Origin: a virus
Reading direction: 5' to 3' (one strand)
IMG/VR virus record: IMGVR_UViG_3300045988_091582
DNA length: 64,000 nucleotides
How positions within the stretch are numbered: position 1 is the stretch's first letter; each line of letters begins with the position of its first letter. The position numbers were made by a program, and so were the translations under genes. The notes below the pieces were generated by a model. That model ran no database searches. It was given only the letters and a program-made list of their open reading frames with translations, and had not been told where the DNA came from. Below, piece by piece: positions 18,151 through 45,762 of the stretch.

Positions 18151-18224
18151 GTCCTATAACTCAACTGGATTAGAGTACGAATCTTCTAAATTCGATGTTA
18201 TGCGTTCGAGCCGCATTAGGACCA
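18150..18224 (+). tRNA. tRNA-Arg(TCT)
   Basis: GGTCCTA/TAGGACC acceptor; anticodon arm CGAAT-CTTCTAA-ATTCG; T arm ATGCG-TTCGAGC-CGCAT. Confidence 0.75.
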
Positions 18225-18228
18225 CACA

Positions 18229-18301
18229 TGCGGAGGCTAGAGCACCTCGCTTTCCACAATTCATAGAGAGGTTATATTGGTTCGAATCCTTTACTCCGTA
18301 C
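18229..18301 (+). tRNA. tRNA-like sequence, structure unresolved (possible pseudo-tRNA)
   Basis: GGTTCGAATCC T-loop and a TGCGGAG/CTCCGTA acceptor-like pairing, but D, anticodon and T stems do not fold canonically. Confidence 0.2.
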
Positions 18302-18324
18302 TAATATTAAAAAGATTAAGTAAT

Positions 18325-18675
18325 ATGAAAAAGATTATTTTATTAATGAGTTTTATTGTATTAACTACAATAGCTCATGCGTTTAATTATGGTTCTATCA
18401 CTATTTATCAAGATGGTGAATGGAGTGCCCCATTTTACATTAAAACCTCAGTAGTTTATAATGAATCTAGAAAAACTATTACTTTTAGTAACAATAAATG
18501 GGGTAAGATGGTATTAAAAATATATTCTTCTGAAATGAAGGATGGAGTAGAAATCCATAACTGTGGAGAGGTTAATACAGGAAGACGTTATGTTGTCTTT
18601 ATTACAGTAAGAAATAACATTCCTTATATAACTCTTAGCACTTCCGCAGATACCATGTATTCATTTGGCTTTTAA
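18325..18675 (+). CDS. small secreted protein
   Basis: Track ORF 18277..18675; likely start MKKIILLMSFIVLTTIAHA (signal peptide) at 18325. Confidence 0.5.
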   Translation: MKKIILLMSFIVLTTIAHAFNYGSITIYQDGEWSAPFYIKTSVVYNESRKTITFSNNKWGKMVLKIYSSEMKDGVEIHNCGEVNTGRRYVVFITVRNNIPYITLSTSADTMYSFGF

Positions 18676-18729
18676 GTTTCCATAATAATGTGTTAACGTT
18701 TTACTAGTTTTCGATATAAACTAGTACTT

Positions 18730-18813
18730 ACGGTAGTAGCTCAGTGGCTAGAGCATCTCTTTTTATAATAGGTCATTTCGAGAAGGTCATTGGTTCGAAT
18801 CCTTTCTACCGTA
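18730..18813 (+). tRNA. tRNA-like gene with expanded anticodon loop
   Basis: Perfect ACGGTAG/CTACCGT acceptor and D arm GCTC-AGTGGCTA-GAGC; anticodon stem TCTC/GAGA encloses a ~20-nt loop; T stem carries two T-T mismatches. Confidence 0.35.
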
Positions 18814-18914
18814 CAAATTTAATTAATATATTGTTAATGTGTATAAATCCTAACTAATAAATCTATTAGTATAGGTAGGTGTTACCACTATTCTCCTTAC
18901 AGAAATGTGGGCTA

Positions 18915-18995
18915 TGCAAGGGTGCTTGAATGGTTAAAAGAAACTCCCCGATTTCTAAAGATGGGATATAATGTTGGTCCGAATCCAACCCCTTG
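18915..18995 (+). tRNA. tRNA-like gene, anticodon arm non-canonical
   Basis: GCAAGGG/CCCTTGC acceptor and T arm GTTGG-TCCGAAT-CCAAC; middle region does not give a 5-bp stem with 7-nt loop. Confidence 0.35.
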
Positions 18996-19169
18996 CACAA
19001 AATAAGATTATAAATTAGCTCTCTAAGCTTTAAGGTGAAGCACGAACCTTTTAAGTTCGGGAAGACAGGTCAGTACTGTCAGGGAGCACTATTAATTTTT
19101 AAGTTATTAAAAGTATTATTCATTTTAAAGTTGTTAAAAGTATTCATTTGTAATACACTAGATTCTCGA

Positions 19170-19184
19170 TCTGTGATAGATAGG
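19170..19184 (+). repeat. TCTGTGATAGATAGG motif, copy 3 (abuts tRNA)
   Basis: Exact 15-mer; its last two G are positions 1-2 of the tRNA-like gene at 19183. Confidence 0.6.
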
Positions 19185-19277
19185 CACTATCGTCTAGCTG
19201 GTTAAGACGCTACTTATTTAAAAGATATTATATTAAACTAAGTGGAAAGGCGATTTCGAGCATCGCTAGTGCTACCA
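19183..19277 (+). tRNA. tRNA-like gene with encoded CCA and 22-nt anticodon loop
   Basis: GGCACTA/TAGTGCT acceptor + A + CCA; D arm GTCT..AGAC; T arm GCGAT-TTCGAGC-ATCGC; anticodon stem CTACTTA/TAAGTGG encloses TTTAAAAGATATTATATTAAAC. Confidence 0.4.
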
Positions 19278-19365
19278 TTTCATTTTTTTATAAAACTAAT
19301 ACGATTAATGTTTGAAATATAAAGTTAGTGGACTTTATAACGTTAAAGAGTTGTTAGGCTTCTGG

Positions 19366-19379
19366 TCTGTGAAGATAGG
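19366..19379 (+). repeat. TCTGTGAAGATAGG motif variant, copy 4 (upstream of tRNA)
   Basis: One indel relative to the 15-mer; 9 nt upstream of the tRNA-Ser-like gene. Confidence 0.5.
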
Positions 19380-19388
19380 AAGCTTTAT

Positions 19389-19466
19389 GGAGAAATGACT
19401 GAGTGGCACCCTGCTAAGGTGTTAGTCATATTATGTGGCTCGAAGGTTCGAATCCTTCTTTCTCCG
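19389..19466 (+). tRNA. tRNA-Ser(GCT)-like, short D region
   Basis: GGAGAAA/TTTCTCC acceptor; anticodon arm CACC-CTGCTAA-GGTG (GCU); long variable arm; T arm GAAGG-TTCGAAT-CCTTC; only ~9 nt where the D arm should be. Confidence 0.45.
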
Positions 19467-19481
19467 CTTTATTAGATATCT

Positions 19482-19553
19482 GGGATATTGGTGTAACGAC
19501 AGCCACGTTGGGATTTGACCCCAAAAGAAGAGGTTTGACTCCTCTATATCCTT
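19482..19553 (+). tRNA. tRNA-Gln(TTG)
   Basis: GGGATAT/ATATCCT acceptor; anticodon arm TTGGG-ATTTGAC-CCCAA; T arm AGAGG-TTTGACT-CCTCT. Confidence 0.65.
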
Positions 19554-19575
19554 CTAATTTTAACAGGTGACTTAC

Positions 19576-19660
19576 GGTGTGGGAACCGTCATCTACGAGG
19601 GGTTAGATTGGTGAATAGCTCGTACGGGAATAAGCCTAAGGAGTTCGAATCTCTACACCT
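19576..19660 (+). tRNA. tRNA-like gene, fold unresolved
   Basis: GGTGTGG/CTACACC acceptor pairing (7/7) and GAGTTCGAATCTC T-loop; internal TACGAG/CTCGTA stem encloses a ~19-nt loop. Confidence 0.3.
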
Positions 19661-19849
19661 GACAATTTAATAGGTACTAAACAACTCTCAGTGATTCTAT
19701 TAAATAGCGTAATTACCTTAAAATTAATCATTTGGGTTAAAAAGAGAAAGAACGTTAGATAGCTGAGGACAATGGAATAGTTTAAATATAACCAGTGAAA
19801 ATTGCCTATTATTTAAATAGATTATTAACACATTAATTATAGATAAATT

Positions 19850-20239
19850 ATGACAAGACAAGATTATTTTATTAGTAAAACCAATTTAATAGCACAAATA
19901 GAAAGTGCTAAGAAATTTGGTTGTAAAAATGTACTCAAGTGTGCAAAATTAAACTTAGCTGAACTTGAAAAGAAGTATAAAGAAGAACATCTTTCTAATC
20001 CTCTGTTCAGTTACATGGTAACTGAGGAAGAAATGGATGAGCTTATTAGAAATGATGAAAAGCCTACATTTAAAATCAAAGTAACTTTTAAAAGTGGAGA
20101 AGCTTATGATTTAATGTTTTACCATGAACTTAAAAGTGGAGTTAAACATTCTGATGTTGTGAAATGGGCGATGAAAGGATTAATTAAAACTATTTATCAT
20201 CCTGAAAATATTGTAGATGCTCGTTTTATTATGGGTTAA
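19850..20239 (+). CDS. hypothetical protein
   Basis: Track ORF 129 aa. Confidence 0.45.
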   Translation: MTRQDYFISKTNLIAQIESAKKFGCKNVLKCAKLNLAELEKKYKEEHLSNPLFSYMVTEEEMDELIRNDEKPTFKIKVTFKSGEAYDLMFYHELKSGVKHSDVVKWAMKGLIKTIYHPENIVDARFIMG

Positions 20240-20244
20240 AAGAT

Positions 20245-20604
20245 ATGGAAATAAAAACAATACAAATTGACTCCGATACATTTTTAGTGTTTAAAGGACG
20301 AGAGTACAGACAGATAAACATAAATAACATTGTATGTATAAAAACATCTGGTAAATATAGTACTATAATAGATGTTCATGGCAATGGTATTATTGTATGT
20401 TGTTCATTAAAAAATATTTCACGTGTTTTATGTATTGATTTTATTCTTGCAACACAAGGATTTTTAATAAATCATAAATACATATCTGAAATAACTAGAA
20501 AGAATGATGAAAATAATACATATATCTTAAAGTTAAATGATGATGTCCATACAACTGTGGATATTTCATTACATGTAGCTACAAATATGTTAAAACAACT
20601 GTAA
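20245..20604 (+). CDS. hypothetical protein
   Basis: Track ORF 119 aa. Confidence 0.45.
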   Translation: MEIKTIQIDSDTFLVFKGREYRQININNIVCIKTSGKYSTIIDVHGNGIIVCCSLKNISRVLCIDFILATQGFLINHKYISEITRKNDENNTYILKLNDDVHTTVDISLHVATNMLKQL

Positions 20605-20635
20605 TACCATAATAGTTTTTAAAGTTTATAAATAA

Positions 20636-20674
20636 ATATTGTTGGCAACTAGCAGATAATTAGTTGCTATTTGG
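20636..20674 (+). promoter_or_regulatory. conserved hairpin element abutting tRNA-Leu
   Basis: ATATTGTTGGCAACTAGCAGATAATTAGTTGCTATTTGG; second copy of the 18115 element. Confidence 0.45.
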
Positions 20675-20756
20675 CTCAGTATCCGAATTGGTATAGGAGA
20701 TGGTCTTAAACACCATTGGACATGTGTCCGTACGGGTTCGAGTCCCGTCTGAGCTA
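20673..20756 (+). tRNA. tRNA-Leu(TAA), type II
   Basis: GGCTCAG/CTGAGCT acceptor; anticodon arm ATGGT-CTTAAAC-ACCAT; variable arm GGACA..TGTCC; T arm ACGGG-TTCGAGT-CCCGT. Confidence 0.75.
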
Positions 20757-20944
20757 CATAATTGATTATTTATTATGTTTTGAAAAATTAAAATCATTCA
20801 TAATTACTGTGAATTTGTGAAAATTTATAAGTAATGTAAAATTTTCGTTTTGTAGAAGATTTTATCTTTCTTTTAAACTCATATTGCTTGTGAAAGTAGT
20901 ATGAGTTTTTAAATAAGGCTATATAGCAATACTAGTATAAATAG

Positions 20945-21017
20945 AAATGTGTAGCTTAAAGCGGTAGAGCACTGACTAGGTAACCAGAGGTTGGCAGTTC
21001 GAGTCTGTCCGCATTTC
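20945..21017 (+). tRNA. tRNA-like gene, anticodon arm unresolved
   Basis: AAATGTG/CGCATTT acceptor; D arm GCTT..GAGC; T arm GGCAG-TTCGAGT-CTGTC; 17 nt between do not form a canonical arm. Confidence 0.35.
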
Positions 21018-21211
21018 CTTTTTCTATCATAAATTTTAATTTTTAAGTTATTAAAAATAAAAGAGTTTTGCTTGTGAAAGTAGAATTTTTTATCAAAATC
21101 AAAATGTGAAAACTTTAATAAGTCGGAGGACTTACAAAACTCAAAAAAGTGTGTCTTAGTGGCAGCTAGCAAGTAGGGAGGAGAGAATTAACGACTCTCA
21201 GACACATCTTC

Positions 21212-21284
21212 GGGCTTGTAGTTCAATCGGTTAAAACGGGAGACTCATAATCTCTTATTCTCGGTTCAATCCCGGGCGAGCCCA
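21212..21284 (+). tRNA. tRNA-Met(CAT)
   Basis: GGGCTTG/CGAGCCC acceptor; anticodon arm GGAGA-CTCATAA-TCTCT; T arm CTCGG-TTCAATC-CCGGG. Confidence 0.7.
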
Positions 21285-21375
21285 CTATTTCTTTTATTAT
21301 ATTATTCTATTTTAAAGAGTCTAATTAGTTAATCTAGTTAGGCTCTTTTTGTTTAATTAAATAACACATTAACAT

Positions 21376-31243: not shown

Positions 31244-32797
31244 ATGGAACATTTAGTTCTTATTGGTGTTGTCGCAGTCGCTATTATTGTACTGCTTGTT
31301 ATTATTGCTACAATGTATGTTAAAGCTCCTCCTTCGATGGCATACATTCTTTCAGGTTTTCGTAAGGAGCCACGAGTACTTATCGGTAATGGTGGAGTAA
31401 AAATTCCTGTACTTGAGCGATTGGATAAAGTATATCTTGGTCAAGTAACAGTTGATGTTAAGACTTCACAGCCAGTCCCTACTCATGATTTCTTGGATGT
31501 AATGGTAGATGCCGTATGTAAAGTTAGGGTAAAACCTGATACAGAAGGCACTAGACTTGCAGCTAAGAACTTCTTGAATATGAACTCTGTTCAGATTGCT
31601 GCTCAGGTAAAAGATTCTTTGGAAGGTAATATGCGTGAAGTAGTAGGCTCTCTTGACTTGATTAAAATTAACACTGATAGAGATGCATTCTCTGATGAAA
31701 TTCAGAAGAAGGCAGCTCCTGATATGGCTAAGTTAGGTCTTGAGATTTTGTCTTGCAATATTCAGAATATTACTGATGAGAAGGGCTTGATCCGTGATTT
31801 GGGTGCTGATAATACAGCAGCTATTCAGAAGAATGCTAAAATTACCCGTGCTAATGCTGATAGAGATGTAGCTAAGGCTCAGGCTGAAGCTGACAATGAG
31901 GCTAATGAAGCACGAGTAAAAGCTGACACCATTATTGCTGAACGTAATAATGAGTTAGCTATTAAGAGAGCTGAACTGAAGAGATTGTCTGATATTAAGA
32001 AGGCTGAATCTGATGCTGCATATAAAATTCAGCAACAGGAGCAGCAGAAGACTATTAATATCAAGACTGTAGATGCTGATATTGAGAAGACTCGTATGGA
32101 ACAGACTTTGTCTGAGGAGAAGATCAAGATTAAGCAGAATGAGTATCTTGCAGATGTAAATGCTAAGGCTGATGCTGATAAGTATCAGACAGAGATTGAT
32201 GCTCAGGCTGCTTTGGAGAAGCAGAAGCGTGAAGCTGAGGCAGAAGCTTATAAAGCAGAGCAGGCTGCTAAGGCTGTAAAAGCTAAAGCTGAAGCTAATC
32301 GTTATTCTCAGGAACAGGAAGCAGCAGGTATTCGTGCTAAGGGTGAAGCTGAAGCATATGCTACTCAGCAGACTATGACTGCTGAGGCTGCAGGTATTAA
32401 AGCTAAGCTTTTAGCAGAAGCTGAAGGTGTTAAGGCTAAAGGTCTTGCAGAGGCTGAAGCTATGCAGAAGAAGGCTGAGGCTTACAGTAAGTATGGTCCA
32501 GCGGCTATAATTGATACTATCTCAGATCTTTATAAGGATGTTCTTCCTGATATGGCTAAGCATATTGCAGAGCCTATGAGTAAGATTGGTAGTATGACAG
32601 TTTATGGTACCAATGGTACTGAGGCTTCTGGTATTTCAGGTAATGTACCTGCTGTTATCAAACAAACTCGTGACATGGTAAAGGATGCCACAGGTGTAGA
32701 TATGGCAGAAATTATGAAGGCTAACACTATTGAAGCTAAGGTTAACAAGAATGTTAACGTTAATGGCGACGTAGAGAACACCAACGTAAATGTGTAA
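31244..32797 (+). CDS. SPFH/band-7 (flotillin-like) protein
   Basis: N-terminal TM helix, SPFH-like core, long Ala/Glu/Lys-rich coiled coil; higher-GC gene. Confidence 0.6.
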   Translation: MEHLVLIGVVAVAIIVLLVIIATMYVKAPPSMAYILSGFRKEPRVLIGNGGVKIPVLERLDKVYLGQVTVDVKTSQPVPTHDFLDVMVDAVCKVRVKPDTEGTRLAAKNFLNMNSVQIAAQVKDSLEGNMREVVGSLDLIKINTDRDAFSDEIQKKAAPDMAKLGLEILSCNIQNITDEKGLIRDLGADNTAAIQKNAKITRANADRDVAKAQAEADNEANEARVKADTIIAERNNELAIKRAELKRLSDIKKAESDAAYKIQQQEQQKTINIKTVDADIEKTRMEQTLSEEKIKIKQNEYLADVNAKADADKYQTEIDAQAALEKQKREAEAEAYKAEQAAKAVKAKAEANRYSQEQEAAGIRAKGEAEAYATQQTMTAEAAGIKAKLLAEAEGVKAKGLAEAEAMQKKAEAYSKYGPAAIIDTISDLYKDVLPDMAKHIAEPMSKIGSMTVYGTNGTEASGISGNVPAVIKQTRDMVKDATGVDMAEIMKANTIEAKVNKNVNVNGDVENTNVNV

Positions 32798-36107: not shown

Positions 36108-36188
36108 GTCTAGATAGCCAAGTGGTCAACGGCAGCAAGCTGTTAACTTGCCCCGAAAGGTTCCTAGGTTCGAATCCTAGTCTAGGCG
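36108..36188 (+). tRNA. tRNA-like gene, anticodon GTT with long variable region
   Basis: GTCTAGA/TCTAGGC acceptor; D arm GCC..GGC; anticodon arm GCAAG-CTGTTAA-CTTGC; T arm CTAGG-TTCGAAT-CCTAG; 12-nt variable region is unusual for a GUU anticodon. Confidence 0.45.
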
Positions 36189-36200
36189 CAATAAACATAT

Positions 36201-36271
36201 GGAGTATTAAGCCCTGTTGGTAAGGGAACTAGACTGTCACTCTAGTAAAACTAAGGGTCCCTTATATTCCG
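36201..36271 (+). tRNA. tRNA-Asp(GTC)-like, no canonical T arm
   Basis: GGAGTAT/ATATTCC acceptor; anticodon arm CTAGA-CTGTCAC-TCTAG; T region replaced by a short AAGG-GTC-CCTT hairpin. Confidence 0.35.
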
Positions 36272-36404
36272 CAAATAATGGAGAGCACCTAGTTGTTAAC
36301 TGGGTGGTTGTTAGAGGTAGCGGTGGCAGCCTGATAGCTCAATGTATTATTAGAATATGGTCACGATAGTTTGCCCGTCTAATGCCATATTCGCCTTTAT
36401 TCTA

Positions 36405-36476
36405 GCTTCAATAGCACAGTGGTAGTGCAGCTCACTTGTAATGAGCAGGTCGTGGGTCCGAATCCTACTTGAAGCT
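36405..36476 (+). tRNA. tRNA-Thr(TGT)
   Basis: GCTTCAA/TTGAAGC acceptor; D arm GCAC-AGTGGTA-GTGC; anticodon arm GCTCA-CTTGTAA-TGAGC; T arm GTGGG-TCCGAAT-CCTAC. Confidence 0.75.
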
Positions 36477-36656
36477 CTCTAATTTAACATGGAGCATGTA
36501 CCAAAGCAGTATCTTAACTCAAGGGGCATTGAAAAGAGAGGTAACGTTACTCATAATATAGTCATGTCGAAGGTTGAGAGAACCTTATAAAAAGTCATCG
36601 ATAGATGGTACTGAAAGACTTTGCTTCGCCGAAAATTCTTTAAAACAACATATATC

Positions 36657-36725
36657 GCGGATGTGGTGTAATGGTAACATGCTAGGCTCATAACCTAGAG
36701 TAGTCGTTCAAATCGAACATCCGCA
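36657..36725 (+). tRNA. tRNA-Met/Ile(CAT)
   Basis: GCGGATG/CATCCGC acceptor; anticodon arm CTAGG-CTCATAA-CCTAG; T loop TTCAAAT with a weak 3-bp stem. Confidence 0.6.
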
Positions 36726-36787
36726 AGATTCACATAGTAAGAACCTCCACGTGGTGTGAATTGGGTAATGCTAATCTTACTAAAAAT

Positions 36788-36871
36788 TATCTAGTATGTG
36801 AAGTGGTCAAACACAACAAACTGTAAATTTGTCGCTATTTAGCTTCGGGAGTTCGAATCTCTCCTAGACAA
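36788..36871 (+). tRNA. tRNA-Tyr(GTA), type II
   Basis: TATCTAG/CTAGACA acceptor (one A-C mismatch); D arm TGTG..CACA; anticodon arm ACAAA-CTGTAAA-TTTGT; long variable arm; T arm GGGAG-TTCGAAT-CTCTC. Confidence 0.55.
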
Positions 36872-36891
36872 CTAATTAAAAAATAAATAAT

Positions 36892-37368
36892 ATGGAAAAA
36901 ACTTTTAATTATCAATCTGACGCAAACTTTTATGATAAAAAGGATTTTATTATAGCTGTTTTAAAAAGAAAAATAAATAGTTTTAAAGAGTATGATGCTG
37001 AAAGAAAAAAACATTATGCTGGTTTAGAACAAAAAGTTGGAGAATTAGAGTCTTATATAGACGAATTAGAAAATGGACTTAGTATAGATTCTTTAAATAA
37101 TAAGATTCAGTCTTTAGAAAATGAGATTGAGAAACAGAATCTTAAAATTAGAGAGTTAAGAGCTAAAGTTAATATATCTTTATTTGATGATACTAAATCT
37201 TTTAGAGAATTAGAATCTATGGCAAATAATTTGAAAGACTTTAATAGTATGAAATTGGCTATTAAAGATCTTAGAAAACAACTTAAAGATAATAAAAAAA
37301 CTATATCTGATTTAATATATGAATTAACACAAGCAAAACTTAAAATAAAACAATTAACTGGAGAGTAA
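36892..37368 (+). CDS. coiled-coil protein
   Basis: Track ORF 158 aa; heptad-rich. Confidence 0.45.
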   Translation: MEKTFNYQSDANFYDKKDFIIAVLKRKINSFKEYDAERKKHYAGLEQKVGELESYIDELENGLSIDSLNNKIQSLENEIEKQNLKIRELRAKVNISLFDDTKSFRELESMANNLKDFNSMKLAIKDLRKQLKDNKKTISDLIYELTQAKLKIKQLTGE

Positions 37369-37378
37369 TCTCCAATTT

Positions 37379-37452
37379 GGGGCGTCGGCTCAAGTGGTCA
37401 GCACCTGCTTTGCACGCAGGCATTCTTAGGAGTTCGAATCTCCTACGCTCCA
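37379..37452 (+). tRNA. tRNA-Ala(TGC)
   Basis: GGGGCGT/ACGCTCC acceptor; anticodon arm CCTGC-TTTGCAC-GCAGG; T arm AGGAG-TTCGAAT-CTCCT. Confidence 0.75.
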
Positions 37453-37470
37453 CTATTAAATTAAATATTT

Positions 37471-38345: not shown

Positions 38346-38666
38346 ATGGGAATAATTAATACATTTAAAACAACATTAGACAATATTAATGGTGCTACTT
38401 GGATTAATAACGTTAAAATAGAAGGAGCACAAACCATTAGTATTAATAATGGTAAAATTTATGTAGATGGAAAATTAAGAGAAGATCTTAGTGAACCATC
38501 TATTGAAATAAAAATAGAAGGTACTGTAAATAGTGTACACACTGGTAGTGGCAATGTTTCAATTACAGGTAATGTTACCGCTATTAGTACTTCTAGTGGT
38601 GATATAAATTGTAAAGACGTTAAAGGTGGGATACAAACAATGAGTGGGGATATATATTATAACTAA
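38346..38666 (+). CDS. hypothetical protein
   Basis: Part of track ORF 38280..38666; ATG at 38346 (MGIINTFKTT) is the more likely start. Confidence 0.4.
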   Translation: MGIINTFKTTLDNINGATWINNVKIEGAQTISINNGKIYVDGKLREDLSEPSIEIKIEGTVNSVHTGSGNVSITGNVTAISTSSGDINCKDVKGGIQTMSGDIYYN

Positions 38667-38680
38667 AAAGATTATTTATA

Positions 38681-39064
38681 ATGAAAAGATTTAAATTTAT
38701 ATTAATATTATTATGTTTTTTATGTACTAAAAGTATTGCTCAAACTGTAACTCATGTAACTCTTACTTGTTATCAACCAGTAAAGAGTCAGTGTAATAAT
38801 GAGCCATTAATTACAGCTGATGGTTCTAAAATTAATCTACATCATTTAAAACATAATAAAATTAAGTGGTGTGCTATATCTCGTGATTTACTTTATTTAT
38901 TTCCAAAGAATAAACCTAAAAAAGTATTTATAGATGGATTTGGAATATATGAAGTTAGGGATGTCATGAATAAAAGACATAAGCATCGTATTGATATATT
39001 AATACATCCTAAAAATTCTAAGAGAATTAGTATTAAGAATGTAAAAATTAAAATTCTTAAATAA
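38681..39064 (+). CDS. secreted hypothetical protein
   Basis: Track ORF 127 aa; signal peptide MKRFKFILILLCFLCTKSIAQ. Confidence 0.5.
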   Translation: MKRFKFILILLCFLCTKSIAQTVTHVTLTCYQPVKSQCNNEPLITADGSKINLHHLKHNKIKWCAISRDLLYLFPKNKPKKVFIDGFGIYEVRDVMNKRHKHRIDILIHPKNSKRISIKNVKIKILK

Positions 39065-39200
39065 ATTTTTTAATTATATAATGAACAGATGACATTAAAA
39101 GAAATTGTAGAAGCCTTTGATGGTAAGAAGAAAGGGACTAGTAAGTTTATCTTATTAGTCCCTATTTTTGTATTAGCATTACTAATATTTATTAATTTAA

Positions 39201-39401
39201 ATGGTTAAGTATAAAAAGTGTGGAGCATTACGAATTAGAGTAGATGGTAATAAATGTATTGTAGTAAATCTTAAATTACCTTCTATCACTAGTCGTAGTA
39301 CTTCGTATTTAGATTTTTTAAGAGAAACTATTTTAGATAGTAATAAGCAAGAGTTTAATAATGCTGTAGAAACAATCTGTACTAGGATTAAATCTTTATA
39401 G
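39201..39401 (+). CDS. hypothetical protein
   Basis: Track ORF 66 aa. Confidence 0.35.
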   Translation: MVKYKKCGALRIRVDGNKCIVVNLKLPSITSRSTSYLDFLRETILDSNKQEFNNAVETICTRIKSL

Positions 39402-39466
39402 TATTATTCATCTTACTTATCATAACGCAGATGATTGTTAGTATAAAATTATTAGTATGATTAAAT

Positions 39467-39649
39467 GTGTTTATTGATTTAACATTAGACAATGATAGTA
39501 TTAATAGAAGATATTTAATAGCCGTAGATGATATTTCCTTAGTAGAAGAAGTTGGTGAAAGCTCTTATATTATGTTAAAGAGTGGAAACTGCTTATCTGT
39601 GAAGGAATCTATTGATTATGTAAAATCTTTATTAGACAATGTCAAATGA
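39467..39649 (+). CDS. hypothetical protein
   Basis: Track ORF 60 aa. Confidence 0.35.
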   Translation: MFIDLTLDNDSINRRYLIAVDDISLVEEVGESSYIMLKSGNCLSVKESIDYVKSLLDNVK

Positions 39650-39863
39650 AAAAGTAAAAATTGATTTTGGATGTGGAACTTCACTTATTTCAGGGTCTTT
39701 CCTGATTTTATTGATAGCTAAAGTTCTCTCACATTCAGATATTTCATGGTTAGTTGTTTTTAGTCCACTCTTAATAGGAATAGGACTTGTAATTATATTA
39801 TGTATTATAGGGTTAATTTTATATTATATACCTGATGGAAGATTTAACAGACATTATAAATGA
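39639..39863 (+). CDS. small membrane protein
   Basis: Track ORF 74 aa; two hydrophobic helices. Confidence 0.4.
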   Translation: MSNEKVKIDFGCGTSLISGSFLILLIAKVLSHSDISWLVVFSPLLIGIGLVIILCIIGLILYYIPDGRFNRHYK

Positions 39864-39899
39864 TTTAGACGATTATTGGAATGATCTAGAAGCAGATTA

Positions 39900-40082
39900 T
39901 TGGAATTCTTTAGAAAAAGAAGGACTATGAATTCAGATACTGCTAAAATAAAAGCAAATAAAGCTTGGAAAACATTAATTGCAGAGTCTTCTTATCTATT
40001 AATGTCTAGTAGAGAGTTAGAAAAGTGTAAAAACTTTTTTATTCTAGGATATTATACAGCAATTATGGATTCTAACTTATGA
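39900..40082 (+). CDS. hypothetical protein
   Basis: Track ORF 60 aa; alternative start at 39927. Confidence 0.3.
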   Translation: MEFFRKRRTMNSDTAKIKANKAWKTLIAESSYLLMSSRELEKCKNFFILGYYTAIMDSNL

Positions 40083-40306
40083 ATTATCAAAAAGCTAGTC
40101 AAGTATCTTTATTAGTAGAATTGGTTAAATCTTCTGAAATAGTGTCTAAAGAATATTCTGAAGCACGTATACCAGAAGATTTAATTTCTAATATAAAGAT
40201 ATTGTGTATGAAAGATAGTAGTTTTAGAAGAAGTTTCTATAGTATAATGCAGAAACTTGGAAAGAAATATTTAGATATTTATATAAATAAATTATCAGAG
40301 TTATGA
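40079..40306 (+). CDS. hypothetical protein
   Basis: Track ORF 75 aa. Confidence 0.4.
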   Translation: MNYQKASQVSLLVELVKSSEIVSKEYSEARIPEDLISNIKILCMKDSSFRRSFYSIMQKLGKKYLDIYINKLSEL

Positions 40307-40806
40307 ACTTAGTTTGGCTAAAATTAATAAAGCGAATCTTAACTCATAAGTATTATGTTGCTAAATATTGTTTTCAAATAGGATTATATTGGCAAGGTAT
40401 TACTCATGATTTATCTAAATTTAGTTTTACAGAATTCTCAAGAGCTATTAAGTACTGGGATGATAATATAAGTTCATTAGCAAATGAACGTAAAATATTA
40501 GGATATAGTCAAACATTCCTTCATCATAGAGGACGAAATCCTCATCATTATGAATATTGGATACATTCTTTAGATGATGGAGGAGTTCCTGCTAGAATGC
40601 CTAAAAAATATGTTTTAGAACTTATATGTGATTATTTAGCGGCAGCTAAAACATATGGAGCTGACCCTAGAAAAGAATATACATGGTGGGCTAAACAACA
40701 ATCTCATATGAAAATCCACAAAGAAACTAAGGATTATATAACTGAAGTGTTTTATAAATATAGTATAGGTTTAACATTAAAAGAATCAATTAATGGAAAT
40801 TATTAA
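40303..40806 (+). CDS. hypothetical protein, possible HD-type metal-dependent hydrolase
   Basis: Track ORF 167 aa; His-rich motifs ITHDLSKF and LHHRGRNPHHYEYW; assignment weak. Confidence 0.4.
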   Translation: MNLVWLKLIKRILTHKYYVAKYCFQIGLYWQGITHDLSKFSFTEFSRAIKYWDDNISSLANERKILGYSQTFLHHRGRNPHHYEYWIHSLDDGGVPARMPKKYVLELICDYLAAAKTYGADPRKEYTWWAKQQSHMKIHKETKDYITEVFYKYSIGLTLKESINGNY

Positions 40807-42346
40807 TGCAACTGATGGCTACAAGCTTGGTCATCATCGTATGTACCCAGAGGGTACACAAATGGTTTATAGTAACTGGACTCCTAGAAGTAATCGTTAC
40901 TTCCCAGAAGCTACAGAAGGTTCTGTAGTATTTGGTATTCAGTACTTTGTAAAAAAGTATTTGATAGAGGAATTTAACGAATGGTTTGTTCTTCCTAAGG
41001 AAGAAGCTATTAAACAGTTTTCTTATCGTGTAGGTAACTTTGTAGATATTAATCAGGTTGGAACAAAGCATATTGAGGAGCTTTATGATTTAGAATATCT
41101 TCCTATTGAAATTAAAGCTCTTCCTGAAGGTTCTATCTGTCCTATAAGAGTACCTATGATGACTATTAAAAATACTCTTCCTGATTTCTTCTGGTTGACT
41201 AATTATTTGGAGACTCTGATTAGTTGTACTCTATGGCTTCCTTGTACTTCTGCAACAAGTGCTCGTCTTTATAAGAAGAGACTTATGGAACATGCTAAAA
41301 AGACTGGATTCCCAGAAGATGTAAATTTAGGCTTCTCTTGTCACGATTTTTCAATGAGAGGTATGGCAGGACTTGATGCATCTGTTATTTCAGGTATGGC
41401 TCATATGACCTCATTCTGTGGTAGTGAAACAATTCCTGCTATCGAAGCAGTAGAGCATTATTATAATGCAGATGTTACTAAAGAACTCGTAGCTGCAACT
41501 GTTCCGGCTTCAGAACATTCAGTAATGTGCGCAGGGGGTGAAGATGGCGAGATTGAAACATATCGTCGTCTTATTAATGATCTATATCCAACAGGTATTA
41601 TCTCAATAGTATCTGATACTTGGGATTTCTGGCAGGTAGTTGAGAAATTCTTGCCTAAGCTTAAAGCAGACATTATAAAGCGTAATGGTCGAGTAGTAAT
41701 TCGCCCTGATAGTGGTGATCCAGTAGATATTATCTGTGGTCTTCGTACAAATCCTCATTACCACACTGCGATGAAGGAAGGTAAGTATTACTGTGATTTC
41801 AATCCATTTATGGATGATGATGAAAGTCATTATGTAGAAGTATCTGAAGGTCAGTATTATGGAGCATATTATATGCTAGGTAAAATCTTTGGATGGAATA
41901 CTACAGTAAATGATTATCGTTATCCAAGCACTAAGATTGGATTGCTTTATGGAGATTCTATCACTCTAGAACGTCAACGTGATATCTATACCAGATTAGA
42001 GAGTGCTCATATGGCAGCTTGTAATCTTGTTCTTGGTATTGGATCTTACACTTATCAGTTTAAGAGTCGTGATTCTTTAGGATTCGCAGTTAAAGCAACT
42101 GCTTGTATAATTAATGGCAGACTTATAGAAATTTATAAGCATCCAAAGACTGATGATGGAACGAAGAACTCTCTCAAAGGTCTTATTAGAGTTGAAGAAG
42201 AGAATGGTAAGTATGTCGCTTATGACCAGCAGACTAAGGATGCAGAACTGCAAGGTTGTCTTAAAACAATCTTTGTAGATGGAGAATTAGTAAGAGAATA
42301 TTCTCTTTCTGAAATTCGTGAACGTGTAAATTCAACATTAGTATGA
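40793..42346 (+). CDS. nadV: nicotinamide phosphoribosyltransferase (NAMPT/NadV)
   Basis: 517 aa; N-terminal ATDGYKLGHHRMYPEGT.MVYSN...R.. and overall length match the NAMPT family. Confidence 0.7.
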   Translation: MEIINATDGYKLGHHRMYPEGTQMVYSNWTPRSNRYFPEATEGSVVFGIQYFVKKYLIEEFNEWFVLPKEEAIKQFSYRVGNFVDINQVGTKHIEELYDLEYLPIEIKALPEGSICPIRVPMMTIKNTLPDFFWLTNYLETLISCTLWLPCTSATSARLYKKRLMEHAKKTGFPEDVNLGFSCHDFSMRGMAGLDASVISGMAHMTSFCGSETIPAIEAVEHYYNADVTKELVAATVPASEHSVMCAGGEDGEIETYRRLINDLYPTGIISIVSDTWDFWQVVEKFLPKLKADIIKRNGRVVIRPDSGDPVDIICGLRTNPHYHTAMKEGKYYCDFNPFMDDDESHYVEVSEGQYYGAYYMLGKIFGWNTTVNDYRYPSTKIGLLYGDSITLERQRDIYTRLESAHMAACNLVLGIGSYTYQFKSRDSLGFAVKATACIINGRLIEIYKHPKTDDGTKNSLKGLIRVEEENGKYVAYDQQTKDAELQGCLKTIFVDGELVREYSLSEIRERVNSTLV

Positions 42347-42837
42347 TAGAAATTGTTAATGGAGATTTACTCCAATCAAATTTACCTCTTATAGCTCATC
42401 AAACTAATTGTTTGGGAGTAATGGGAGCAGGTATAGCTAGATCTATTAAAAATAAATGGAATATTGTATATACACAATATGTTGATATCTGTAAAACTTT
42501 TGAATATTCTAAAGATTTATTAGGTAAATGTCAAGTATGTGTAACTGAAGAATTACCTATTAGATTTGTAGCTAATTTATTTGGTGAATATTCTTTTACT
42601 GAATCAGTAGCTCCTTTTGAAAATAGACATACTGATTATAATGCTCTTAAAAAAGCTTTGTTAAATTTAAAAGCTTTTTGTGAAGACGAAGAAGTAACAG
42701 AAGTAGGTATTCCTTATAAATTAGGATGTGGATTAGCAGGTGGAGATTGGGATGGAGTAGTTTATCCTATGCTACAAGAACTTTTTGCTAATGATTCAAC
42801 AATAACTCTTTATATTTATAAATTATGCAACAATTAA
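42343..42837 (+). CDS. macro-domain protein (ADP-ribose binding/processing)
   Basis: 164 aa; IVNGDL...IAHQTNCLGVMGAGIA matches macro-domain NAAN..LGGGGV.GAI. Confidence 0.55.
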   Translation: MIEIVNGDLLQSNLPLIAHQTNCLGVMGAGIARSIKNKWNIVYTQYVDICKTFEYSKDLLGKCQVCVTEELPIRFVANLFGEYSFTESVAPFENRHTDYNALKKALLNLKAFCEDEEVTEVGIPYKLGCGLAGGDWDGVVYPMLQELFANDSTITLYIYKLCNN

Positions 42838-43634
42838 ATTTAGTACATCTAGAAGATAGTGATATTAAATATTCTATCTCTAGATTTCCTGATGGTGAAG
42901 TTCAAATTTCATTAGAAGAATTCAGTCATAAAGAGCAAGTATTAGTTAAATGTAGAATTACTAATGCTGAAGACTTGTTTATACTTATGCAAGTTTTAGA
43001 TATTCTTGATAGACATGAAGTTCTGTATAAGTTAAATATCTATTATTTAATGAGTATGAGAATGGATCGAGTAATGGATTTCAATAGACCTTTTACTTTA
43101 AAAATAGTCTTAAATTCGCTAAAAAATTGTAATGCAGACGTTATTAAAATCTTAGAACCTCATTCTGATGTTTATTATGATTTTAGATTTGGAAGAAAAT
43201 TTACTGAATTATATATAGGAAATAGTCTTTCAAACACTGTATGGAATGATTTTCAAATGGTTCTTCCAGACGCAGGAGCTAAAGAAAGATATGATTTCCA
43301 ATTTAATAAAACTGCACTTACTTGTAGTAAAGTCCGAGACTTAACTACAGGAAAGATTTTAGAAATTAAAATAGATAATCCTGAAGTAATTAGTGATAAA
43401 CCTCTATTAATTCTTGATGATTTGTGTGATGGTGGAGGAACTTTCTGTGGTATTGCTAAAGCGTTTAATGCTTTAGATATTCCTAAAGAACGTTTAAATA
43501 TTGCAGTTACTCATATGGTAAATCCTAAGGGTATAAAGAATTTGTCAGAAAACTTTAATCACGTATGGTTTACTAACTCTTATAAAGACTGGGACAATCT
43601 TCCTGAGAATGTTACAATGTTAAAGGTTATCTGA
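42825..43634 (+). CDS. prs: ribose-phosphate pyrophosphokinase (PRPP synthetase)-like
   Basis: 269 aa; RFPDGEVQISL N-terminal motif and PRPP-binding loop LLILDDLCDGGGTF. Confidence 0.6.
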   Translation: MQQLNLVHLEDSDIKYSISRFPDGEVQISLEEFSHKEQVLVKCRITNAEDLFILMQVLDILDRHEVLYKLNIYYLMSMRMDRVMDFNRPFTLKIVLNSLKNCNADVIKILEPHSDVYYDFRFGRKFTELYIGNSLSNTVWNDFQMVLPDAGAKERYDFQFNKTALTCSKVRDLTTGKILEIKIDNPEVISDKPLLILDDLCDGGGTFCGIAKAFNALDIPKERLNIAVTHMVNPKGIKNLSENFNHVWFTNSYKDWDNLPENVTMLKVI

Positions 43635-43775
43635 TGTATATTTTGGAACTTATTATAACTATTATTTTGGTAATAATTATAACTGATCCAAGATTAGATA
43701 TTACAGATAGTCAATGTATATTGTGGTATTCAAACTTTGAAGGAGAACGTTGTTATTTAATACTTTGGAATAAAA

Positions 43776-44102
43776 ATGATCATTATAAATAAAAATGAAT
43801 TAGACCCTAACTTAATTTATGATATTAATTTAGAGTTAGAAGCATTATTTACAGATAGTACAACTTGGGAAATTAGTTCTAGTACTGGAGATTTAGATGA
43901 TGCTTCCGATATACGAATTGTTATTAAAGGTGAGGGACATTGCTATATTTCTACAATAAATGATACTGAAGGGTACGTTAGAGATTTGTTAAATAGTTAT
44001 AGAAAAGCTCATAATTTTGATACTTTTTGTATGTCTACAACGTACTTTGATCCTGAAAAGAATGGAATAGTATTTGAATATGCAGATTACATATCTTTAT
44101 AA
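43776..44102 (+). CDS. hypothetical protein
   Basis: Track ORF 108 aa. Confidence 0.45.
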   Translation: MIIINKNELDPNLIYDINLELEALFTDSTTWEISSSTGDLDDASDIRIVIKGEGHCYISTINDTEGYVRDLLNSYRKAHNFDTFCMSTTYFDPEKNGIVFEYADYISL

Positions 44103-44104
44103 CT

Positions 44105-44518
44105 ATGTTACAGATTTATACTGATGGTGCTTATAAATCTTCTATTGACCAAGGAGGTATTGGAGTAGTATGGATGAAGGATGATAAAGTATTTAAAAAG
44201 TACTCTAAAGTCTTTAAACATACTACTAATAATAAAATGGAATTAATTGCTATGTTATGTGCTTTTAAGTCTATTAAAACTCCAATGGATGAAGTAGAGT
44301 TTATAAGTGATAGTCAATATGTACTAGGGTGTCTTACTATGGGTTGGAAGAAAAAGAAGAATGTAGAACTCTGGAATATTTTAGATAAAGAATATGAAAG
44401 AGTTAAATCTTTAGTAAAAAATATAAAATTTACCCATGTTAGAGGGCATCAAGATTGTTTTGGTAATAATCTAGCGGATGAGTTAGCTAGTAATGCTAGC
44501 TTAGAATTACTAGAATAA
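44105..44518 (+). CDS. rnhA: ribonuclease HI
   Basis: 137 aa; IYTDGA...NNKMEL...FISDSQYV...HVRGHQD..GNNLADELA matches RNase H catalytic motifs. Confidence 0.7.
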   Translation: MLQIYTDGAYKSSIDQGGIGVVWMKDDKVFKKYSKVFKHTTNNKMELIAMLCAFKSIKTPMDEVEFISDSQYVLGCLTMGWKKKKNVELWNILDKEYERVKSLVKNIKFTHVRGHQDCFGNNLADELASNASLELLE

Positions 44519-44679
44519 TGTATTTAGTTATATCAATAATAATTGTTTTTACATGTGTGGCTATTTATATTGGATCTGCATTTGCTGTTATGTATAGATG
44601 GGATGAAAATAGTATCAGCATTAATATTAGCATGTCCAATTATAAATACGTTATTAGCACTGTATTACCTGTATCCTAA
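44518..44679 (+). CDS. small membrane protein
   Basis: 53 codons MYLVISIIIVFTCVAIYIGSAFAV...; below track cutoff. Confidence 0.3.
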   Translation: MYLVISIIIVFTCVAIYIGSAFAVMYRWDENSISINISMSNYKYVISTVLPVS

Positions 44680-44721
44680 GTTAACAGAAACTTTAAGTAA
44701 AATTTTTAAAAATAATTAATT

Positions 44722-44901
44722 ATGGCTAAAGAAATTGTAAAAGTAACAGTAGACACTATTACTATTTATCGTACTACTGGTGGTAAAATTGCGGTAAAAC
44801 GTAGTGATAGATTAAAACCAAGTAGATATTTCGATGATATCAAAGATGCTCGTAAGTATGCTGAAGAGCACTTTGAAGGTAATGTCTCAGAGTCTCTCTA
44901 A
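44722..44901 (+). CDS. small hypothetical protein
   Basis: 59 codons MAKEIVKVTVDTITIYRTTGGKIAVKR...; below track cutoff. Confidence 0.3.
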   Translation: MAKEIVKVTVDTITIYRTTGGKIAVKRSDRLKPSRYFDDIKDARKYAEEHFEGNVSESL

Positions 44902-45178
44902 GACATTTTCATTTCTAGAGTGATAAATTGTTCATGATTCTAAATTTAGAAGTTTGTAGACTATTCTAGACGTGTCTATGACTAAATTATGGTATTTTAC
45001 CTAGATAATTTTAATATTACACAGATGATTAATTTTCTTTTAATTTTCAATTCTAGTTAAAATGAAGTATAAGGCAAAGCTTGAAAGACTTCGTCAGAAG
45101 CAGGTATGGTGGGATAAGCTCCCTCAAGCAGTAAAAAATGCAACAACAAGACCTGGTGGTATTGGATCAAAATAATCT

Positions 45179-45496
45179 ATGATAATTAAAGAATCTGATT
45201 TTGAATTAAGATCTTCAACAAATGATGAAAGTTGTCCTCATTGGGATTTATATATTATGAAAACCATTAATGCCAAATCTAAAACTAGAGAGGCTAGAGA
45301 GGAACTTACTTTAGCAGGATATGGATTAACCTTATCTGGAGCTATGGCATCAATTGCTAGATATAGAGTAGCTAGAGCTAATCCTGAAAAGGCTTTTACT
45401 ATGCAACAATATTTAGATTCCTATACAAAAGAACTTCATAGATTATATGATATTGTGGGAGAAACTCCTAATAATACTACTTTGATGGAGGAATGA
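45179..45496 (+). CDS. hypothetical protein
   Basis: Track ORF 105 aa. Confidence 0.45.
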   Translation: MIIKESDFELRSSTNDESCPHWDLYIMKTINAKSKTREAREELTLAGYGLTLSGAMASIARYRVARANPEKAFTMQQYLDSYTKELHRLYDIVGETPNNTTLMEE

Positions 45497-45762
45497 TTAA
45501 GTCCATTCCTATAACTACTTGGAGAGACGAACATCATAGAGACATTACAGTTTCTAAGATGTTCGTCTATGAACTTACAGCATATGCTCATTATAAAGAT
45601 AGAGAGGAATTGTTAGGTAGTAAGTTTATATCTTCAAATAAACCTCTTAAAGAGAGAGTACAAGTTACTAAAAAGATTGGATATAGAATTATAAAATCCA
45701 TTGACTTAGTATCAGCTCCTCTAGATTATATTATTAATAATTCTAAATTTAAAAAATTATGA
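45493..45762 (+). CDS. hypothetical protein
   Basis: Track ORF 89 aa. Confidence 0.45.
   Translation: MIKSIPITTWRDEHHRDITVSKMFVYELTAYAHYKDREELLGSKFISSNKPLKERVQVTKKIGYRIIKSIDLVSAPLDYIINNSKFKKL

Follow-up and report, generated by a model that had tools for sequence, protein, structure and literature searches.

The gene block at 40303-43634

The window, by which we mean the whole 64-kb stretch of viral DNA analysed here, carries four contiguous plus-strand open reading frames at positions 40303-43634. The ORF coordinates match these boundaries exactly and bear out the contiguity that an earlier, sequence-only reading had claimed. Neighbouring genes of the block overlap by 14, 4 and 13 nt, in this order, with overlapping start and stop codons, and the block belongs to a longer chain of overlapping or abutting genes at 40079-44679. 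This chain includes an ORF of 75 aa that overlaps the first gene of the block by 4 nt and is translationally coupled to it; family searches with its product gave no match. The features are as follows.

40079-40306, plus strand: 75-aa ORF without family match, conserved in close relatives
40303-40806, plus strand: DUF5662 protein, 167 aa (Pfam DUF5662, E 4.6e-32)
40793-42346, plus strand: predicted Namat-type, NAMPT-like nicotinamide ADP-ribose transferase, 517 aa (NAPRTase, NAMPT_N, phrog_448)
42343-42837, plus strand: predicted Adpp-type macro-domain protein, 164 aa (Pfam Macro, phrog_335)
42825-43634, plus strand: predicted Adps-type, PRPS-like ADP-ribose pyrophosphokinase, 269 aa (phrog_619)

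The HMM scores of the four genes were far above chance, and the identical four-gene arrangement was seen again in 13 IMG/VR contigs and in independent assemblies from the gut of humans and pigs. The "His-rich putative hydrolase" that had been placed just upstream of the cluster corresponds to the DUF5662 gene, which lies within 40303-43634 and not upstream of it. The source is a TAG-recoded, low-GC gut phage with a genome of roughly 100-190 kb, the hosts of which are probably Bacteroidota. Early and replication genes, such as those for RNase H and helicases, surround the cassette. A terminator-like hairpin with a 13-bp stem is found upstream of the block at 39133-39163. A sigma-70 promoter scan of 38500-45500 was uninformative, with 42 sites against 43.6 expected. 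A second ORF of 517 aa (31244-32797) was considered as a Namat paralogue and rejected, being an SPFH/flotillin protein.

In relatives, the cassette is dispensable, and patchy presence, deletion and gene splitting were observed. Rfam searches at gathering thresholds of the window and of three relatives with split Namat genes revealed only tRNAs; the inserts in these split genes are thus not recognised group I introns.

Signatures of the three core proteins

Two phage pathways of NAD+ reconstitution serve as references. Core NARP1, consisting of Adps and Namat, was described for Bacillus phage SPbetaL1, E. coli phage Bas63 and Vibrio phage ICP1 (Osterman et al. 2024), and its extended form NARP1-AP, with the gene order Adps-Adpp-Namat, for Vibrio phage Gary (Osterman et al. 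2026 preprint, doi 10.64898/2026.01.28.702374). The other pathway, NARP2, combines Nampt with Nmnat and is that of Vibrio phage KVP40.

The 517-aa protein had been read as NAMPT, an assignment that stood at the level of the family, with matches to Pfam NAPRTase (E 5e-33) and NAMPT_N (E 9e-9), to phrog_448 (E 6.6e-177) and to the NCBIfam NAMPT/NAPRTase-family model NF006629 (512 bits), whereas the PRPP/NMN chemistry attached to it did not hold. Its closest solved relative is the Namat of SPbetaL1 (9W5X/9W5W; 475 bits, E 2.4e-141), whereas its matches to NAMPTs reach only about 205 bits. The identity is 41% to Gary Namat and, in the alignment, 33% to a KVP40-type Nampt, and the phage matches are bimodal, with NARP1-type proteins at 35-47% and NARP2-type proteins at 24-30% identity. 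At the SCH selectivity clamp for adenine, for which the published Namat consensus is GSxΦxΦxΦTRD, the protein has GSYTYQFKSRD (residues 417-427). Its positions 3, 5 and 7 are aromatic and follow the Namat signature, and two positions depart from the consensus, Thr9 being replaced by Ser and Φ3 being Lys. Namats of ICP1, of Gary-like phages and of Felixounavirus have GS[YF]TYQY.TRD here, and GGGLLQQLDRD stands there in the ValKK3 Nampt of NARP2, the clamp motif being absent from the Nampt clade of NARP2. The published signature further includes an Arg, Lys or Tyr from the SCL loop that stacks on adenine; in the window this residue is Arg35, Arg35-Tyr36 aligning with Arg40 of SPbetaL1, and 66 related loci have R or K here, with Y next.

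Of the Nampt-like catalytic core, D8, Y10, F186, R189, H242, R304 and D306 are present, and over the same 66 loci the active-site and clamp residues are conserved. One nicotinamide-contacting residue differs: Asp215 of SPbetaL1, the mutation of which to Ala lowered activity 8-fold, is Glu212 in the window (GSETIPA), a conservative change that is invariant throughout the clade. A 40-aa insertion is located at a variable site (residues 317-356). An Adps-like gene follows in the same operon, 495 nt downstream. Judged by these residues, the protein has the signature of a Namat that would use ADPR-PP and not PRPP, and it would convert ADPR-PP and nicotinamide into NAD+ and PPi.

For the 269-aa protein, previously called a PRPP synthetase, the superfamily was recovered by phrog_619 ("ribose-phosphate pyrophosphokinase", E 5e-60), but not the enzyme itself. 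The protein remained below the cutoff of all nine curated Prs models (61.4 bits against 113 for TIGR01251), and its best match to a PRPS in the PDB reached only 38.6 bits. Of the Pfam profiles that had been proposed as a check, NAPRTase and Macro gave clear matches, whereas Pribosyltran, at 16.7 bits, stayed under its cutoff; Pribosyltran_N and Pribosyl_synth gave no Pfam match to this protein. By comparison with the solved Adps of ICP1, nine residues that were functionally tested or contact ligands at the ADPR/ATP site are invariant (F18, R87, H121, D161, K185, D212, D213, D216, F221). C215 is also kept, and the PP loop reads DDLCDGGGTF for DDICDGAASF. Two further ligand contacts are altered, F92 to Met and F223 to Gly. 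The PRPS chains of bacteria and human among its PDB matches have 316-321 aa; the chain of the window falls about 50 residues short of this, a length consistent with loss of the C-terminal alpha11-12 region of PRPS, which Adps homologues were reported to lack. Identity to the characterised enzymes is low (26% to ICP1, 28% to Gary) and reaches 50% for the Adps-like gene that Bacteroides phage DAC15 carries. The search matched 783 phage records, mostly of known NARP1 lineages, and the Namat gene of the window lies two genes upstream, well inside the ten-gene distance used as criterion; in the published survey, 97% of Adps-clade genes adjoin a Namat gene. We infer that the protein forms ADPR-PP and AMP from ADPR and ATP.

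The macro domain proposed earlier for the 164-aa protein was confirmed by Pfam (PF01661, E 1.2e-8, 35.3 bits against a cutoff of 22 bits), and phrog_335 ("phosphatase") matched with E 1.7e-35. Over its full length the protein is 37% identical to KNV71_gp137, the purified Adpp of Gary (87 bits, E 2e-27). In the PDB, the leading matches were BT1257 and DarG, slightly above the entries 6LFQ-6LFU of yeast Poa1p (E 1e-6 to 5e-5, best 1.3e-6), a macro-domain ADPR-1''-P phosphatase acting in tRNA splicing. According to the published rule for detecting NARP1-AP, a Macro domain (PF01661, PF14519 or PF20016) is encoded at most two genes from the NARP1 pair; the gene of the window conforms to this rule, as it sits between the Namat and Adps genes and overlaps them by 4 and 13 nt.

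Glycohydrolases are found among macro domains of this class, and the sequence-only reading had suggested that the protein could reverse ADP-ribosylation. It would then be a DarG/TARG1-like eraser of ADP-ribose on phage DNA or proteins, acting against host DarT or other ADP-ribosyltransferases and merely co-located with the NAD+ genes. The macrodomain of M. tuberculosis DarG (5M3I, 36.8 bits) is among the leading PDB matches and the NCBIfam DarG model NF048014 matches with E 2.6e-16, but this match covers the macro part only and scores 59.8 bits against a cutoff of 250. The catalytic lysine of such erasers is K84 in TARG1 and K80 in DarG. In the window, NLFGEYSF is aligned with the DarG loop NFPTKKHW, so this lysine is absent; LFGEYSF, which stands in place of PTKKHW, resembles LFTSSFGG of Poa1p. 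The far greater similarity to the biochemically proven Adpp, the overlap with both NARP1 genes and the presence in relatives of a HAD-like phosphatase gene in place of the macro gene argue in the same direction. Removal of ADP-ribose from protein or DNA thus does not appear to be the role of the protein, and we regard this function as very improbable. Its sequence is best explained by a phosphatase that would turn ADPR-1''-phosphate into ADPR and Pi, feeding ADPR into the pathway.

A predicted NARP1-AP operon

The sequence families, the signature residues, the gene order, the translational coupling and the absence of an NMNAT gene from the window form the basis on which we attribute the cluster, with good though not complete confidence, to a NARP1-AP operon in the order Namat-Adpp-Adps, NARP1-AP standing for NAD+ reconstitution pathway 1 with associated phosphatase. 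The enzymatic activities and the anti-defence phenotype are taken by analogy from published work on homologues. A host defence would split NAD+ into ADP-ribose and nicotinamide; Adps would move the beta,gamma-pyrophosphate of ATP onto the 1'' hydroxyl of ADPR, and Namat would couple the resulting ADPR-PP with nicotinamide to NAD+ in a single step, with neither an NMN intermediate nor an adenylyltransferase. Defences of the RES type, which are NAD+ phosphorylases, would yield ADPR-1''-phosphate, unusable by Adps, from which Adpp would strip the phosphate to give ADPR.

The operon of Gary contains the same three families, likewise with the macro gene between the core genes, at identities of 37% for the macro protein, 41% for Namat and 28% for Adps. 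It differs by its reversed order, Adps-Adpp-Namat, by its origin from a Vibrio demerecvirus rather than from a recoded gut phage, by an Asp at the nicotinamide-binding position of Namat where the window has Glu, and by the conserved DUF5662 gene that the window has in addition upstream. With core NARP1 the window shares the Namat clamp and, save for Asp215, the catalytic core, the acceptor and donor residues of Adps, the DDxCDG PP loop and the adjacency of the genes; the predicted macro phosphatase and the Namat insertion are additions. An accessory enzyme beside NARP1 that converts an NAD-derived product to ADPR also has a precedent in RyDEP-NARP1 of mycobacteriophage DyoEdafos, RyDEP being an RyR-domain glycosidase unrelated to any protein of the cluster. 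Counting against NARP1-AP are Glu212 in place of Asp, the F92 and F223 changes and the 26-28% identity of Adps, the two deviations in the clamp motif, the order of the macro protein's PDB matches and the residual PRPP activity of Namats.

This residual activity, about half of that of human NAMPT in vitro, bears on a classical salvage route, in which Prs would supply PRPP, NAMPT would turn nicotinamide into NMN, and NAD+ would be completed by an NMN adenylyltransferase of phage or host, much as in NARP2. Such a route would agree with the family assignment of the 517-aa protein, and host NadD or NadR could provide the adenylyl transfer. NARP2 of KVP40 indeed shares with the window a NAMPT-family enzyme and NAD+ restoration as the common end result, but it uses PRPP, passes through NMN, needs Nmnat and has no linked Prs-like partner. 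The clamp motif and the closer relationship to the solved Namat than to NAMPT speak against PRPP as substrate in the window, as does the 269-aa protein with its low Prs scores and missing PRPS C-terminus. The sequence-only reading had looked to an NMN adenylyltransferase elsewhere in the genome; a search for NMNAT and NUDIX proteins (CTP_transf_like, NUDIX) gave none among the 30 other ORFs of at least 140 aa in the window, which covers 64 kb of the genome. The route implied by NARP1-AP has no NMN intermediate and so needs no such enzyme, whereas in published surveys Nmnat accompanies Nampt in 94% of the NARP2 phages, and no phage was found with both NARP1 and NARP2. Taken together, we consider classical salvage to be very unlikely.

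An equally slim chance is left for NARP1 chemistry in the service of general metabolism, ADPR from NAD-consuming enzymes of phage or host, for instance a ligase dependent on NAD or a possible ADP-ribosyltransferase of the phage, being recycled to keep NAD+ high during replication: the location among early and replication genes and the dispensability of the cassette in relatives would suit it, as would a weak ADP-ribosyltransferase-like match at 17169-17717 (19.5 bits, under the Pfam cutoff), but published NARP1 deletions and knock-ins had defence-specific phenotypes, NARP1 gives no excess NAD+ without depletion, and such patchiness, with deletions and split genes in relatives, is what accessory counter-defence genes typically show.

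The middle slot, the DUF5662 neighbour and the meaning of the cluster

Within the NARP1-AP attribution, two features of the locus concern genes around the core pair. Crassvirales (Bacteroides phage DAC15, cr126_1) and sister gut phages have overlapping genes in the order Namat-X-Adps, as in the window, and the sister phages also carry DUF5662 upstream. Where X is a macro domain in the window, it is phrog_1238 in these phages, in exactly the same slot, with a HAD-like phosphatase assigned by PHROG, motifs and predicted fold only; single-sequence and profile searches of the PDB gave nothing meaningful for it, and Pfam gave nothing. Its presence in this slot argues that the slot encodes a small-molecule phosphatase. 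A literature search for NARP1 with HAD or nucleotidase returned nothing relevant and the order Namat-HAD-like-Adps was not found; the replacement looks new.

The DUF5662 gene lies directly upstream of Namat and is linked to NARP1 throughout the phage clade; in one relative it is located within the NARP1 operon. The HD phosphohydrolase superfamily is recognised by the metal-binding pattern H...HD...H...H...D on a fold made up of helices; the DUF5662 protein, weakly HD-like, may be a divergent metal-dependent hydrolase of this type and may be an accessory enzyme. An obligate role in NARP1 was rejected, as the gene occurs without NARP1 in 14 of 80 IMG/VR loci and also in L017, Moorella phage MTATph1 and MW202647, and NARP1-AP does not require it as an explanation of the cluster. 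No similarity was detected to BBMuffin gp174, a homologue of the "phosphoesterase" near NARP1-AP of Gary. A literature search on DUF5662/PF18907 found nothing, and the linkage to NARP1 looks new.

A more tentative extension, which we hold to be possible but rather doubtful, is that NARP1 operons of gut phages, probably infecting Bacteroidota, have been enlarged by undescribed enzymes, with DUF5662 as a candidate and with a middle slot that takes either a macro (Adpp) or a HAD-type phosphatase. DUF5662 could then be an HD-type phosphohydrolase that makes ADPR or ADPR-1''-P out of another product derived from NAD; its substrate might be ADPR-1'',2''-cyclic phosphate, cyclic ADPR acting as a signal, or 2'-phospho-ADPR that stems from NADP. 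If so, the macro/HAD exchange would be a non-orthologous replacement, providing a second route against RES or acting on a different phosphorylated substrate.

In summary, the most likely function of the cluster is to restore NAD+ directly, out of the pieces that NAD-destroying defences of bacteria leave over. The earlier proposal of a phage NAD+ reconstitution module against such defences holds by homology, as a further case of the recently described NARP1-AP pathway and not of classical PRPP/NMN salvage. This corrects a plausible but wrong annotation, as phage pairs of "NAMPT and PRPP synthetase" would generally be NARP1, which recycles ADPR and does not consume PRPP. Two leads follow, the putative hydrolase DUF5662, whose linkage to NARP1 extends over a large clade of gut phages, and the predicted HAD-like phosphatase replacing the macro phosphatase in crAss-like and related phages. 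Finally, the range of NARP1-AP would extend to abundant stop-codon-recoded phages of the human and pig gut, which would imply that NAD+ depletion by the hosts of these phages takes both a hydrolytic and a RES-type phosphorolytic form.

Layout of the cluster at 40303-43634

The window, phage DNA with a GC content of ~29%, carries almost all of its genes on the + strand. Open reading frames and Pfam/PHROG matches confirmed four genes at 40303-43634, lying within an unbroken run of overlapping or abutting genes (40079-44679):

40303-40806, +, DUF5662 protein, 167 aa (Pfam DUF5662, E 4.6e-32)
40793-42346, +, NAMPT-like protein, 517 aa (NAPRTase, E 5e-33; NAMPT_N, E 9e-9; phrog_448, E 6.6e-177)
42343-42837, +, macro protein, 164 aa (Pfam Macro, E 1.2e-8; phrog_335 'phosphatase', E 1.7e-35)
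42825-43634, +, Prs-like protein, 269 aa (phrog_619 'ribose-phosphate pyrophosphokinase', E 5e-60)

Successive genes overlap by 14, 4 and 13 nt, and their stop codons are TAA or TGA throughout. The Pfam and PHROG matches bear out the protein families of the sequence-only reading (NAMPT, macro domain and PRPP synthetase, Prs), with the Prs-like protein remaining sub-threshold against Pfam Pribosyltran (16.7 bits). The "His-rich hydrolase" placed just upstream does exist as a gene, but it is the first member of the cluster itself and encodes the DUF5662 protein.

Enzyme assignments

According to Osterman et al., the 'Prs + NAMPT' pairs of phages are NARP1, in which Adps turns ADP-ribose into ADPR-PP by pyrophosphorylation and Namat makes NAD+ from ADPR-PP and nicotinamide. 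In their survey Namat adjoins 97% of Adps-clade genes, NARP2 (Nampt + Nmnat) forms a separate clade, and no phage has both pathways. Sequence signatures for Namat and for Adps were taken from the structural papers. The Namat-discriminating motif is GSxΦxΦxΦTRD, whose aromatics stack on adenine; the K185A variant of ICP1 Adps is inactive, and Adps homologues lacking the PRPS C-terminal module have been reported.

Among all PDB sequences the best matches of the 517-aa protein were 9W5X and 9W5W, both SPbetaL1 Namat (475 bits, E 2.4e-141), whereas human and other NAMPTs reached ~205 bits in the same search. Its clamp motif reads GSYTYQFKSRD, compared with GS[YF]TYQY.TRD in the Namats of ICP1, Gary-like phages and Felixounavirus and with GGGLLQQLDRD in the KVP40-type Nampt of ValKK3. 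Arg35-Tyr36, from the variable clamp loop, aligned with SPbetaL1 Arg40, and the catalytic residues His242, Arg304, Asp306, Phe186 and Arg189 are present. The nicotinamide-contacting Asp215 of SPbetaL1 Namat is replaced by Glu212. Glu212 is conserved across 66 related loci, and so are the clamp motif and the other residues; we therefore read the change as characteristic of the lineage, in a gene that is still constrained, and not as decay. A tblastn search of 50,697 phage records with this protein was bimodal: identity was 35-47% for known NARP1 lineages and 24-30% for NARP2 lineages. Residues 317-356 (window 41743-41860; LRTNPHYHTAMKEGKYYCDFNPFMDDDESHYVEVSEGQYY) form a 40-residue insertion absent from the Namats of SPbetaL1 and ICP1, at a site where other Namats hold different inserts.

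The Prs-like protein scored below every curated PRPP-synthetase model (TIGR01251, 61 bits versus a 113-bit cutoff; equivalogs far lower), and its top PDB PRPS match gave 38.6 bits. When it was aligned with the Adps of ICP1, for which structure and kinetics are known, and with those of Gary-like phages and Felixounavirus, Phe18, Arg87, His121, Asp161, Lys185, Asp212, Asp213, Asp216 and Phe221 were invariant. The PP loop reads DDLCDGGGTF, as against DDICDGAASF in ICP1, and Phe92 and Phe223 of Adps are Met and Gly, respectively, in the window protein. The bacterial and human PRPS chains that it matched in the PDB have 316-321 aa; its own 269 aa leave it ~50 residues short of them, in line with the C-terminal module loss described for Adps homologues. 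Among cultured phages, Bacteroides phage DAC15 has the nearest relative, an Adps-like gene with 50% identity; identity to Gary Adps is 28% and to ICP1 Adps 26%. The clamp motif, the gap in bit scores and the failed Prs cutoffs thus speak against the chemistry first proposed, a NAMPT acting with a PRPP synthetase. A search of the genome for an NMN adenylyltransferase had also been suggested; neither a nucleotidyltransferase nor a NUDIX domain occurred in the 30 other window ORFs of at least 140 aa, and these 64 kb, from a genome of ~100-190 kb to judge by its relatives, thus yielded no NMNAT.

The macro protein aligned over its full length with KNV71_gp137, the purified Gary Adpp (37% identity, 87 bits, E 2e-27). 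Its PDB matches comprised BT1257, the DarG macrodomain, Poa1p (E 1.3e-6) and TARG1; with the NCBIfam DarG model it scored 59.8 bits, under the 250-bit cutoff. In the HMMER alignments, NLFGEYSF of the window protein faces the DarG loop NFPTKKHW, which carries the lysine that is catalytic in TARG1 and DarG, and the window segment resembles CLFTSSFGG of Poa1p. A 2026 preprint (Osterman et al., doi 10.64898/2026.01.28.702374) reports that aRES, defence proteins with a RES domain, cleave NAD+ by phosphorolysis into ADPR-1''-phosphate, a product that is no substrate for NARP1, and that the macro-domain phosphatase Adpp, found in 15% of NARP1 operons and purified from Vibrio phage Gary, restores ADPR in an extended pathway, NARP1-AP. 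Adpp is operationally defined there as a Macro Pfam gene at most two genes from NARP1, a definition that includes the macro gene of the window. The cluster is, with good probability, a NARP1-AP operon, differing from the type example in Gary in gene order and host range.

Apparent TAG recoding, tRNAs and a candidate ADP-ribosyltransferase

Under the standard code, 1158-9801 (+) contains no long ORFs. Once TAG is read as sense, six ORFs of 225-952 codons follow one another back to back, with 5-48 in-frame TAGs in each; one of them carries a motif resembling lytic transglycosylases. The pattern suggests that the TAG stop codon is recoded in late genes, a phenomenon known from gut phages. ARAGORN predicted 12 tRNA genes in two clusters (18150-21285 and 36108-37453), and 11 tRNAs were confirmed by Rfam. 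The ARAGORN predictions include:

18730-18814, suppressor-like tRNA, anticodon TTA (ARAGORN; Rfam 18730-18813)
19183-19277, suppressor-like tRNA, anticodon TTA (ARAGORN; without Rfam confirmation)
20945-21018, odd tRNA prediction with a 4-base anticodon (ARAGORN)

A 182-aa ORF at 17169-17717 (+) gave a weak, sub-threshold match to the 2CompART ADP-ribosyltransferases (19.5 bits versus a 27-bit cutoff). If real, it would be a second NAD-consuming activity of this genome.

Relatives and the middle position of the operon

The window phage is a member of an abundant gut lineage, and near-identical four-gene cassettes were found in human and pig gut assemblies. A scan of IMG/VR with the DUF5662 profile returned 80 loci, re-searched locally, many of which stem from one virome and are hence not independent. 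The order DUF5662-Namat-Macro-Adps was found at 13 of them, all within the window's sub-lineage, while 47 carry DUF5662-Namat-X-Adps, where X is a phrog_1238 protein of 140-165 aa; the middle gene is missing from three. At one locus (L036 3904-7300) the order is Namat-HAD-like-DUF5662-Adps, which places DUF5662 inside the NARP1 operon there and not upstream. NARP1 was absent within 6 kb of DUF5662 at 14 loci, including all ten distant homologues, and is also missing from the relative L017. X lies between Namat and Adps at:

L018 8098-8568 and L032-L087, sister gut phages
L100 3967-4392, cr126_1, Crassvirales
L101 3921-4349, Bacteroides phage DAC15 (gp037), Crassvirales

X and the middle gene of the crAss-like DAC15 and cr126_1 cassettes are homologues (hhalign probability 100), and X contains the four HAD motifs (FDFDNTIFD, LxLFT, KKPY and ILLDDRAG). 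The family, with >3,000 members in metagenomes, is annotated in PHROG as 'phosphoheptose isomerase'; X is called a 5'-nucleotidase in one public record. The structure model (pLDDT 85.5) predicts a capless HAD-phosphatase-like fold, its Foldseek matches being BT_0820 (E 2.6e-4), the T4 Pnkp phosphatase domain, a phage sugar-diphosphate phosphatase and MDP-1. That one slot holds a macro phosphatase in some phages and a HAD-like one in others supports a small-molecule phosphatase role at this position. No paper that connects NARP1 with a HAD or nucleotidase gene turned up in the searchable library. As a separate observation, cr126_1 encodes an SPFH protein two genes downstream of its NARP1 cassette (L100 5404-6195), and the window encodes a 517-aa SPFH/Band 7 and flotillin-domain protein at 31244-32797 (+).

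Several relatives carry interrupted cassettes. The closest GenBank relative, MT835492 (L002 8001-9474), shows a 1.86-kb deletion with respect to window 40303-43634 that fuses DUF5662 codon 32 to the last ~30 Namat codons at a GCAAGGT microhomology, without touching the macro and Adps genes; either the phage has lost NARP1 function in nature or the deletion arose during assembly, the record being marked UNVERIFIED. MT836666 (L003 8488-10473) encodes a fusion: ~205 N-terminal aa resembling an AAA+ ATPase run in frame, with no stop, into a Namat lacking ~60 C-terminal-domain residues, and a 64-aa HAD-like remnant follows in place of an intact middle gene; this cassette may be decaying or rearranged. 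Inserts of 170-690 bp that follow the catalytic-His region (ASEHSV) divide Namat into two ORFs of ~280 aa each in several close relatives (L019 6491-8742, L021, L030, L031 and L088). Part of an HNH-like ORF lies in the L019 insert, and L088 is interrupted a second time near residue 431-443. Rfam at gathering thresholds detected no group I intron in three relatives with a split Namat. The Namat of the window is intact. Such patchy deletion and splitting fits an accessory counter-defence cassette, and the counter-defence role proposed from the sequence alone is retained; what still looks new is the linkage to DUF5662 and the displacement between macro and HAD-like genes.
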